DNA from: Chrysomallon squamiferum
Lineage: Eukaryota; Animalia; Mollusca
Direction: 5' to 3'
Assembly: GCA_012295275.1 (NCBI GenBank)
Contig: CM022674.1
Coordinates: forward strand, 1,736,001 to 1,800,000
DNA length: 64,000 nucleotides
A program made the position numbers and the translations under genes. Shown here piece by piece: positions 34,830-59,313 of the stretch; position 1 is the stretch's first letter; every line of letters begins with the position of its first letter. The notes below the pieces were generated by a model. That model was not told the origin of the DNA and searched no databases. It worked only from the letters and a program-made list of their open reading frames with translations.

Positions 34830-35068
34830 TCAGACTTGACGTAGTTCTGTTCTGTCCGAGCCTTTTCCTTTCCAACACCAACGGAAGCAGCGCGTGCGCG
34901 CGGACTCACGGACAAGCTCGTCCAACGTCATGCACACCGCCGAGGCGAGGAAGAAGAAGGCCCCGCCCCAGCCCAGCCCGTACCCGATGCCGTACCGGTG
35001 GGAGCGGATCTGGTTGTCCAGCTCGACAGCGATTGGGAAAATGATCAAGGCAATGCCCGTACTCAAGG
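34830..35068 (-). CDS. TMEM47-like gene, shared last coding exon: TM3, ECL2, TM4, C-tail
   Basis: Acceptor gttttgtttcag|CC. Encodes (A)LSTGIALIIFPIAVELDNQIRSHRYGIGYGLGWGGAFFFLASAVCMTLDELVRES...ELRQV*, with TGA at 34830-34832. YGIGYGLGWGG matches the family TM4 motif (TMEM47 FNWGYGLAWGA, from recall). GC-rich against an AT-rich background. Confidence 0.92.
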
Positions 35069-35764
35069 CTGAAACAAAACAAAATGAAATAAATAAATAA
35101 ATTAATTAATTACTAGATAAATAAGTAAATAAATAATTGAATGAATAAATAAATGAATAAATAAATAAACAAACAAATAAATAAATGAAGAAATAAATAA
35201 ATAAATGAATAAATAAATAAATAAATGACCAAACAAATAAATAAATAAATAAACAAACAAACAAATCAATAAATAAATAAATAAAGTAAATAAATAAATC
35301 AACATACAAATAAATGAACAAACAAATAAATAAATAAATAAATAAATAAATAAGATCTATATAATTATAAATCAGTCCATAAAATAAAATTTAGAATAAC
35401 CTTCTTTTTTTAAAATTTAATATTAATGATAATAATGCTAATAATGTCATGATGGTAATTATGATGACGGTGATAATGCTGAAGATGAAGATGATGATGA
35501 AAATCATTTGTTGACGTAGTAACAATAATATACACTATAAGGAATACTAGTACTAGCTGTCATAGTAGTAATCATCGTTGTTCTTATCGTTGCTGTAGAA
35601 GTAACAGCAGCAGTAATAAAAATATTTAAAATATACGCAGTAGTAGTAATAGTAGTAAGAAAAATGTTGATAATAATGATGATGATGATGATGATAGATG
35701 ATGATGATGATGATGATGATAATAGTGATGATGATGATGATGATGATGATGAAGATGACAGTAC

Positions 35765-35914
35765 CACAAACGAGGAATATTTCGCCGGCCGAATGGAAGT
35801 AGTATATTTTTCTCGGCAGTGGACTGGTACAAACCCCGCAGATTGACAAAGTGGAGGCCACGAACCCAAACGTAGCAGCGAAGAGAAGCAGTCCAATCAC
35901 AGCGTTCTGCCAGT
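35765..35914 (-). CDS. TMEM47-like gene, shared exon 3: TM2, intracellular loop, start of TM3
   Basis: Acceptor ttcctgtctttcag|AC and donor G|gtactg. 150 nt, phase 1 to phase 1. Encodes WQNAVIGLLLFAATFGFVASTLSICGVCTSPLPRKIYYFHSAGEIFLVC, similar to TMEM47 'DWQIATLALLL' (from recall). Confidence 0.9.
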
Positions 35915-56200: not shown

Positions 56201-57028
56201 ACATACACATACATACAAACATACATACATACGTACATACATTCATACATACATAATACATACATACATACATACATACAAGTATACATATATACATACA
56301 TATATAGCTACACATACATAAACTTTTAAAGACACTGAAGTCTGAGTATAAGAATTTTGTAATAATATATAATTAAATTGCAGAGGATAGTCTCAAACAG
56401 CGAGTTCTGTACACAAACAGGCTTTAAACAATTAAATTAATAACTCTGGCAAATAATGAATATTATTACATGAGTAAACATGTTAGAGATAAACTACCGA
56501 TTAACTAGCAAATTGCTATTATCAGAATTTTAACAAATACTGTCATGGAAAGAAAAATAATATATATATCCGTTAAAATTATAAATTCTGAGTAAATTAC
56601 TGTTTCTTTTTAAGTGCGACTGAAACGCGTATCAAACTAACAATTATTGCAACAGTAGGCGTATATCAACCTAATGCACTCGTCTAAAAACTCTCATCGT
56701 TATGAATCGCACTAGCATGTAACGTAGAAAAATCGTGGTCGTCTGAACTATGAAACAGAATAATTTTCTGTTTAATGTCGGGGGGTGGGGGGTTAATATG
56801 TTCAGTAATTCAGATTAATGGCAGTTGGGTTGTAAAATGTTCTGGAACATAAAAAAAAAAAAAAAAAAAAAAAACACCAAAAAAAAACACCACAACATTT
56901 ACAGTACAGTCTAAATGACGATGACGATACCTTAGTTACCGCCGCTACGTAATAAATAACGATAACGTCATCAATGGCCGTGACGTAATGAAAATAGCAC
57001 AAAAAAAGAAGAAAAAAAAGGGACTTAC

Positions 57029-58145
57029 CTACGGTCTGGTACGTGAGCCAGTGCGCGTTCGTGAGACTGACGAGTAGAAAGACGACGGCGAGGAGGTTGA
57101 GAAACAGCCCCAACCACCGCACGCGCACGAAGATGTCGTGGTCCCAGTAGTCGTTGAGCACGTGCCACTGGTTGAGGGTCAGCTTCACCTCGGACTTGAA
57201 AGGGTCCTTGTGGCGTTTTTTCCCCTTCTCGATAACCTTGTACGTTCTGAACTGCTCCTGCTGGTGCCGTCGTAGTTCGTTGATGTCGTCCTCGGAGAGG
57301 TACTTCGCCTCCAGATCCGGGTGCACGAACTTCAGCCCCTCCTGCCGCGCCTTCTTCACTGGCGTCGACGTCCTCTGTTTGTCCTTCTCCCCTTTCTCCA
57401 GCAGCTCCAGACGACGCTGGTACGACGCCCTCCGCTCCCGCGACCACCTCATCCACGCCGACTCCGTCGTCATGCCGAAGAACTTCGAGCCCCGCGACGT
57501 CTTCGACTTCAGCGACCCGCCCTGCGACGACCGCGCCGAGTTTCGCCGGCTCTTGTTGCTGTGCTTCTCCCACTCCTCGTAGCTGCGTTTGTCCCACTCG
57601 TCGTCGATGCTGTCGACGTGGAGGCCCACCACGCACGGCGGCAACGACAGCGACTCCCGCCTGTCGCGGCTGAAGAACTGCTCGTAGTTATCGCCTCCGC
57701 CATGTTTGTGATTATTGTGGTTGTTGTTGTGGTTGTGGTTGTGGTGGTAGTGGGTCGCGTCCCCTTGTTTCTTCTGATCCGACTTCATGCCCGAAGCCGT
57801 GCCGTTCGTCCTGTCGCGCAGACTCGGTTTGATCCGGTCACGTGCCGCGCGTGCCTCTTCCGGACTGATGCTGTACCCGCCGCGGTCCCGCACTCTCGTC
57901 GTAGTCGTAGTAGTCGTAGTACCCTGGATGCTGCTGACGCTTTCCTGAGAAGAGAACCCCCCCGAGGTCATCGTCTCCCCGAGCCCGCTCGTCTCGGTGG
58001 AGCTCTGCGCGTGCAGCGCGTGCAGTCCCGTGCTCGCCTCATTCTGGGGGTTGTCGGGAGACAGGAAATGTCGGCCGGTGTTTTGCGCCGCGTCGCGGTC
58101 TTTGATTCGACCTCTCTTCTCGTTGGCGTTTCCTCTCCCCGCCAT
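57029..58145 (-). CDS. TMEM47/PERP-like (PMP22/EMP/claudin superfamily) gene, coding exon 1A: long N-terminal tail + TM1
   Basis: GC/CpG-rich island with strong G/C third-position bias. ATG at 58145 with an in-frame TAG upstream (58251-58253). Acceptor ctttctcttcctgcag|G at 58265/58264, so the exon starts with 5'UTR. Ends ...WLGLFLNLLAVVFLLVSLTNAHWLTYQTV G|gtaagt. 1117 nt, phase-1 donor at 57028. The ORF track's extension to 56802 is intron read-through. Confidence 0.85.
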
Positions 58146-59313
58146 AGTACGCTCCGCCGTCTGACGACGTTGCCCAATGAGCGGGAACTGTTCGCAGCGA
58201 CGTAGAGGTGGGTCAGGCCATATGGCGCCGCGATCGATTCCGGGCGCGAACTAAACTCGTTCACCTGCAGGAAGAGAAAGTATACAAATTGTAATACGTC
58301 GCTCCTCTTTTGTTATCGTTAACCAGCTGACATTACGTGGCAATAAAGAGTAATTCTAACCCTACAGAGTGTGACTCTGTCTCTCTCTCTCTCTCTGTGT
58401 GTGTGTGTGTGTGTGTGTGTGTGTGTGTGTGTGTGTGTGTGAATGAATCATCGTTAGAACCGCCTCCTATAACTGAATTACGAGTCACACGTAAAATTCC
58501 CAGAAACAACACAACTGCGGTAACTGGCAGCTATTTCGTGATAAAAAAAAAATATACGGATTAATATTTAATTTGTGTGTACAGTTATGAAATCCACAGA
58601 TGTGTGTATGTATGTGTGTGTGTGTGTGTGTATGTATGTATGTTTGTATGTATGGTAGGATGGATGGATGGATCGATATATTATCTCTCTCAGGAAATGC
58701 GACTTTTGTGTGTGTGTGTGTATATATATATATATACATACACACATTCATACATACATACAGACATAATATATATATATATATATATATATATATTATT
58801 TTATATGGATCGATAGATACACATACACTATTTATCTCTCTCTCTCTCTCTCTCTCTCTCTCTCTCTCTCTCTCTCTCTCTCTCTCTCTCTCTCTCTCTC
58901 TCTCTCTCTCTCTCACACACACACACACACACACACAAAACACCCACACATACATACATAACCCATCAATGAACATACACAGAAGCACACACGTATCATT
59001 TTCACCACCTACCTACCTAACAGTGATGCAGTAACGATTCAACAAGCTCGTGTCGTCACGCCTCGTGTGCGTCACACCATACTTACACGTGTGTTCTGTC
59101 ACACCGTACACTGAACACCATTGTGACATAAACTCAATACTTTTACAAAACCGCGCGCTCTCGTTCGGTCGTTCACTGGGAGTATTATGCACAGACACCA
59201 GTAGATATAATGATAACGATAATAACAATGGTACTTGGCATTGGCAGACAGGTGGGATCCCTTGGGGGACGGTGGACGGAGGTCTGGGACCGCCGTTAGC
59301 CAAAAAAAAAAAG

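Follow-up and report, generated by a model that had tools for sequence, protein, structure and literature searches.

Whether one molluscan gene of the claudin superfamily can mount two alternative surface loops on a common membrane core is the question raised by a 64-kb stretch of DNA from the snail Chrysomallon squamiferum (contig CM022674.1, positions 1,736,001 to 1,800,000; this whole stretch is referred to as the window). Two modules, A (exons A1 and A2) and B (exons B1 and B2), each encode an N-terminal tail, a first transmembrane helix (TM1) and a first extracellular loop (ECL1), and are followed by exons C1 and C2, encoding the second to fourth helices (TM2-TM4). It is probable that these exons form one PMP22/claudin gene in which cassette A, and likely also cassette B, is spliced to the shared TM2-TM4 exons, that the cassettes originated by tandem duplication, and that the products are likely cell-junction proteins. 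The variable/constant architecture taken by itself is held with high confidence, and the junction role, which is argued by analogy, at a little better than even.

All exons of the gene are on the minus strand (Table 1). The six exons proposed in the initial annotation were reproduced from the sequence, with AG before and GT after every internal boundary and all junctions in phase 1; A1-A2-C1-C2 encodes 535 amino acids and B1-B2-C1-C2 encodes 219, both without internal stops and with TM2-TM4 in common. Its description of the modules also holds: each has its own ATG with an in-frame stop 5' of it, a TM1 closed by H-W-L and a loop exon carrying G[LI]W-x-x-C-x12-C, and the loops differ as described, with a W-to-G spacing of 15 residues in A versus 8 in B and two sequons versus one. 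Besides the loop, the largest difference lies in the cytoplasmic N-tail (~330 residues in A, ~35 in B), and 15 of 54 aligned residues are identical between the modules. A single TM2-TM4 set had been noticed, and tblastn with 24 full-length relatives against the 64 kb likewise returned one C1 and one C2. Neither this search nor a six-frame scan for the loop motif (five matches, three of them unrelated or repeat sequence, with plausible exons only at A2 and B2) found a third TM1 or loop exon within the window. The window is microsatellite-rich, with 32% GC, and its exons are not chance reading frames, because B1 and C2 are 95% and 91% identical to those of the gastropod Gigantopelta aegis, the closest named relative.

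Splicing was followed in contigs from three RNA runs (X1, X3 and X4; one study, other individuals), aligned at C1 and A2, with the limitation that contig assembly loses rare forms; a further run, X2, behaves as DNA and reaches into introns. The junction on which the initial annotation had staked its proposal, 43458>35914 (A2>C1), is present in all three RNA runs, as is 35765>35068 (C1>C2). The C1 alignments break at the exact exon ends, and their overhangs match the donor end of A2 and the start of C2, with one letter off on the C2 side because the runs come from other individuals. In X4, a second contig of 160 nt joins the A2 donor exactly to the B2 acceptor, at a depth of 3.9 compared with 5.9 for A2>C1. 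This join is in frame and would give 564 amino acids if continued to C1. The evidence for it is this single low-depth contig, the last 46 letters of which are absent from the C1 alignments. These letters may belong to the B2 intron; the next 46 letters of that intron have a CTT run at their end. The modules, which had been described as interchangeable, are so in that A is spliced to the shared exons; they may not be strictly exclusive, A2>B2 having been seen once. In P0130, a scallop-like product, unrelated sequence follows the joined B1 and B2, which, as with the X4 contig, would fit retention of the intron downstream of B2.

Relatives were found among 14 of 328 candidates for A1, 6 of 93 for C2 and 21 of 41 for B1, and a B profile search gave 258 representatives at E <= 0.001, the best 150 of 258 being listed. 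Complete A forms with a species name come from three Haliotis, Candidula, Littorina (2,330 amino acids), Ylistrum, Pecten, Mizuhopecten, the chiton Liolophura and the annelid Owenia; complete B forms come from Bradybaena, Bulinus, Argopecten, Potamilus, Mytilus, Pinctada, Magallana, the flatworm Macrostomum and the bryozoan Bugula, and further named B forms from Solemya, Saccostrea and Ostrea. Both forms are spread across molluscs, A occurring also in an annelid and a brachiopod and B in a bryozoan and a flatworm; Owenia, Bugula and Macrostomum yielded one form each. Logan products of both types cover all exons on short contigs (a 571-residue A form on 2,018 nt; the oyster B form on 81 contigs), which points to spliced mRNA. 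Many open frames of both modules lose family resemblance a few codons past the TM1 tryptophan, so an intron at this position is shared by the modules. In three oyster models (P0044, P0046 and P0050), the B form runs on into a GH9 endoglucanase, whereas the Logan products end normally; these are probably annotation fusions with a neighbour.

Some gene models place both modules at one locus. The models of Gigantopelta (XP_041377378.1) and Dreissena (XP_052285350.1) run from A1 to B1-B2-C, and that of Lingula (XP_013410926.1) runs through A1, A2, a second loop and C; in all three, the order is that of the window. Loop profiles, which sorted 37 of 38 held-out loops correctly, class the first Lingula loop as A-like (10.9 versus -0.2 bits) and the second as weakly B-like (4.1 versus 1.2); among the retrieved proteins, this model is the only two-loop product. 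A shared A/B locus explains such recurrent fused models, and direct one-locus evidence, as read from these sequences, is in hand for gastropods, one bivalve and one brachiopod.

The two halves of the protein have different histories in phylogenetic trees. One row without a split point (P0163) was left out of all trees, a truncated A row (P0118) out of the module trees and the window's B form out of the approximately unbiased (AU) test, and the module trees took in the Lingula model with its first loop only. In the shared-half tree (44 rows, 128 columns; the window's A and B rows are necessarily equal here), A and B forms are intermixed and follow the animal group, with 11 A/B changes, which does not improve on shuffles (77 and 45 of 500). 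Scallop A and B group together at 100/100, and the family is set apart at 100/99 from five weaker relatives, used as outgroup, which we take to be TMEM47-like from their appearance. An A clade is rejected on the shared half (13 versus 14 rows, p-AU 1.6e-67, on a quick tree). In contrast, the module tree (44 rows, 91 columns) places A on one side of a branch at 99/99 with a single A/B change, its bootstrap being incompletely settled and long branches flagged, and a tree of TM1 and ECL1 only (43 rows, 57 columns) needs two changes, with 0 of 500 shuffles as low. The scallop proteins illustrate the difference, with 126 of 128 shared-half residues identical between A and B and about a quarter to a third of the module. 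Shared halves that sort by animal group and modules that sort by A and B are the pattern predicted by common constant exons with ancient alternative modules; together with the A2>C1 junction, this bears out the variable/constant design of the initial annotation. The partial tandem duplication suggested there is also likely, though not as a local event: according to the trees, it likely took place before molluscs parted from brachiopods and annelids. The W-x8-G spacing of B is that of all five outgroup rows, so B likely represents the ancestral type.

Membership in the PMP22/claudin superfamily, another of the early proposals, is supported by PF00822, which scores above the gathering cut-off in all eight full-length relatives examined, of both forms (43-61 bits versus 26.7); the six window exons taken singly gave no Pfam family match at cut-off. 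The W...GLW-x-x-C...C motif of ECL1, as given in excerpts of the source (PMC3879130), is present in both modules. In the model predicted for the A form of Haliotis, the transmembrane helices and ECL1 strands are confident, the first 200 residues are disordered and helices run from 202 to 304; among its matches are claudin-19 (E 1.6e-10) and claudin-15 (Z 18.9, root-mean-square deviation 2.2 over 167 residues), and the structural alignments put its identity to claudins at 22-24%. Such modelling supports the claudin fold of four transmembrane helices with a beta-sheet built from both extracellular loops. The B-form model (pLDDT 53.7) had no match under E 0.001 in the fold search and was not used as evidence. 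Top clusters in the Atlas search were TMEM47 and VAB-9 (0.93, 199-205 shared features), tied by a mollusc LHFPL/PMP22 cluster; a search with the conserved block of A1 returned leads under 0.9 only. The proposed TMEM47/VAB-9 likeness is accordingly supported as that of the nearest named family, a placement made by Atlas clusters. Among 33 A-type sequences, the tail carries W-x-x-W-[SG]-x-x-R-R-x-S in 28, [TS]-P-[VI]-[KR]-[KR] in 26 and a Ser/Thr-Gly motif in 19, which we take to resemble PKA, proline-directed kinase and phosphodegron sites. The tail is of variable length (P0117, P0157, P0191), fewer than 200 residues at the shortest and about 2,100 in Littorina, and a juxtamembrane block is its only conserved part. 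A terminal valine in 32 of 39 family proteins suggests a PDZ-type ligand.

Several observations weigh against this one-gene reading and bring other explanations into play. One is that the split in the TM1+ECL1-only tree is weaker, with weak support and four A rows inside the outgroup. Of the junctions that were to be looked for, 38465>35914 (B2>C1) appears in none of the three RNA runs at C1, and 57029>43559 (A1>A2) was not seen at A2, where the contigs of all three stop at the first base (43559); moreover, the share of A1 words is 0.00 in X3 and X4 and 0.15 in X1. Absence from contigs is not proof of absence in either case. Contigs starting exactly at the first base of A2 suggest a fork with an upstream partner that does not end in G. 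A1 and the intron before A2 both end in AG, and a tandem donor in A1, 4 nt upstream of its end (57029-57033), or another upstream exon could explain these starts. Judging from the relatives, A1>A2 and B1>B2>C1 would nevertheless be spliced in this snail. If only A worked in this species, B1-B2 being a relic or rarely used and B2 mainly a cassette exon of A transcripts, then A2>C1 would be the only junction expected into C1, and it is the only one seen there; the sole B2 in RNA is also joined to A2. Such decay of B is nonetheless very improbable, given a B1 that is nearly identical to that of Gigantopelta, with start region, TM1 and donor all intact, a match at 55 of the last 62 module residues, B1-B2-C products in many molluscs, and three RNA runs that come from one study and lose rare forms. 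A and B could also be separate paralogous genes in most lineages, with exon sharing special to this snail group. Among the named species, no pair of complete A and B records was retrieved from the same species, and land-snail shared halves are 70-76% identical, differing by 24-30% (Candidula A versus Bradybaena B, 92 of 128), and therefore belong to paralogues in that lineage. Genome duplication has occurred in land snails, and the isoforms may there be split between duplicated genes; three land-snail-like sequences (P0009, P0118 and P0020) comprise two A-type paralogues and one B form. As a general account, separate genes are very improbable, since the shared-half tree sorts by animal group and not by A and B, the scallop pair is nearly identical in this half, and models fused at one locus come from gastropod, bivalve and brachiopod alike.

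The function of the proteins is a separate matter, because claudins, MP20 and TARPs tie structurally with the A model (Z 18-19, within 1 Z) and the fold does not fix function, which also counts against a junction role. The same architecture could thus serve auxiliary subunits of channels or receptors (TARP/GSG1L/LHFPL-like), in which loop and tail would tune gating or trafficking instead of adhesion. TARP and GARLH4 chains reach Z 16-18 against the model, the Atlas gives the LHFPL/PMP22 mollusc cluster an equal top score (0.93), CACNG5 is the label of one Mytilus record, and Lingula TARPs modulate AMPA receptors, according to parts of one paper (PMC13520880). However, sequence ranking puts claudin-19 (E 7e-6) and MP20 (3e-5) far above TARP gamma-3 (0.57), TMEM47 and VAB-9 head the Atlas clusters, and separate true TARPs exist in spiralians, as described in the same parts of that paper (PMC13520880). 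An auxiliary-subunit role is considered unlikely, though it is the strongest competing account.

On the preferred reading, of one gene with two cassettes, tandem duplication of a TM1 exon and a loop exon before the mollusc, brachiopod and annelid lineages split would have produced both. B would have retained the compact TMEM47-type loop (W-x8-G); in A, the loop entry would have lengthened and become more glycosylated, and a long tail bearing a conserved basic helical block would have been added. Cassette A, and likely also B, would be spliced onto the shared exons, giving proteins of predicted claudin fold that differ in ECL1, TM1 and the cytoplasmic N-tail. The choice of A or B would likely be made by separate promoters; transcripts starting at A must skip B2, and leaky skipping would yield the in-frame A2>B2 join. 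Extracellular partner or permeability would be determined by the loop and cytoplasmic regulation by the N-tail, and the valine-ended tail present in both forms would dock them on one scaffold. By analogy with CLDN10a/b, CLDN18.1/18.2 and VAB-9, the two forms would let junction surfaces and cytoplasmic control differ between cell types while the core stays the same. A bolder proposal, which we regard as doubtful, is that spiralians have used a combinatorial code since the Cambrian or earlier, with a regulated two-loop A1-A2-B2-C form (564 amino acids, four loop cysteines) and a phospho-regulated A tail; it is prompted by the A2>B2 junction in RNA here and by the Lingula gene model.

Table 1. 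Features of the two-cassette gene in the window.
Feature	Coordinates	Strand	Evidence
A1, 5' untranslated part; pyrimidine tract and AG ahead; in-frame stop and two-codon upstream open reading frame inside	58146..58264	-	sequence
A1, coding exon: ~330-residue cytoplasmic tail (disordered, then conserved helical block), TM1-A, ECL1 start	57029..58145	-	sequence, relatives; model of Haliotis orthologue
A2, ECL1-A loop exon, 102 nt, GLW-C-C, two sequons	43458..43559	-	RNA: spliced to C1 (X1, X3, X4), to B2 (X4)
B1, coding exon: short basic N-tail, TM1-B, ECL1 start	40623..40809	-	sequence; 95% identity to Gigantopelta, 21 relatives
B2, ECL1-B loop exon, 84 nt, GIW-C-C, one sequon	38465..38548	-	sequence, tblastn; acceptor used in X4 RNA contig
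C1, shared exon: TM2, intracellular loop, TM3 start	35765..35914	-	both ends spliced, 3/3 RNA runs
C2, shared exon: TM3, second extracellular loop (ECL2), TM4, Cys-rich tail with terminal Val, stop	34830..35068	-	sequence, relatives, RNA

A strong acceptor at 58265, directly 5' of A1, indicates that A1 is probably not a first exon, and a further exon upstream likely exists; 5' of B1, one pyrimidine-rich AG passed the filter, about 460 nt off. The upstream open reading frame in the A1 leader lies at 58213-58221. Just upstream of the B2 pyrimidine tract, a 7-nt tandem repeat of 6.7 copies (38579-38625) is a candidate control element for B2 skipping; its last copies, on the gene strand, resemble repeated branch-point motifs. 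No exact inverted 12-mers, a sign of looping-out of B, were found between the A2-B1 and B2-C1 introns by what is a crude test. Low-depth X1 contigs, from pre-mRNA or DNA, fall in the intron at 43098-43310, where X2 differs by an 11-nt insertion and many substitutions. Elsewhere, an open reading frame of 119 residues (32244-32603) resembles a DNA-transposon remnant, and a Pfam scan of 21 non-repeat open reading frames of the window gave 0 of 21 at cut-off, with no second gene recognised.

In the open-access literature, supplements aside, no paper was found on the gene, its two-exon cassettes, the tail switch, the spiralian spread or the two-loop splice. The principle of loop swapping is already known; this instance, combining these features, was not found described. 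In relation to the CLDN10/CLDN18 loop swap, it would be a convergent counterpart, much older and built of several exons, that extends across several spiralian phyla, and likely a very old switch of surface loop and inner tail in a probable cell-junction protein. The junction biology of this family in molluscs, annelids and flatworms is barely described, and the locus offers a natural experiment on the roles that ECL1 and a long N-tail play when attached to a single claudin core, as well as on the skipping of an internal cassette exon.

Among known systems, the closest in principle are CLDN10a/10b and CLDN18.1/18.2, isoform pairs that differ in TM1 and ECL1 and share the remainder. In excerpts of the respective papers, CLDN10a is anion-selective and CLDN10b cation-selective, with different tissue ranges (PMC5521874), and exons 1a and 1b of CLDN18 are used from two promoters (PMC12384651). 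Alternative TM1+ECL1 units on common exons are likewise found here, for A through the A2>C1 junction in RNA and for B through anatomy and relatives. However, CLDN10 and CLDN18 swap a single first exon (69-73 residues), the CLDN18 isoforms being 91% identical, whereas the snail gene has two-exon modules, a tail difference of about 300 residues and an internal B2 to be skipped, and does not belong to the classic claudins. TMEM47/TM4SF10 and C. elegans VAB-9 are the nearest named clusters, and RefSeq labels the Argopecten B form TMEM47-like; the snail family differs from them in its own TM2-TM3 loop signature and in the A tail. In the available sections of one paper, VAB-9 is active at adherens junctions together with ZOO-1 and F-actin and, by an unpublished remark, forms no strands (PMC3879130). 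Chelicerate sDscam, as excerpted, has tandem two- or four-exon 5' cassettes on constant exons, with cross-cassette splicing and an intron retained after the last cassette exon (PMC4835542). The tandem 5' cassettes of the snail gene are alike, and its A2>B2 leak recalls this cross-splicing and intron retention, but sDscam is an unrelated protein with tens of species-specific cassettes, whereas the snail gene has two ancient ones.

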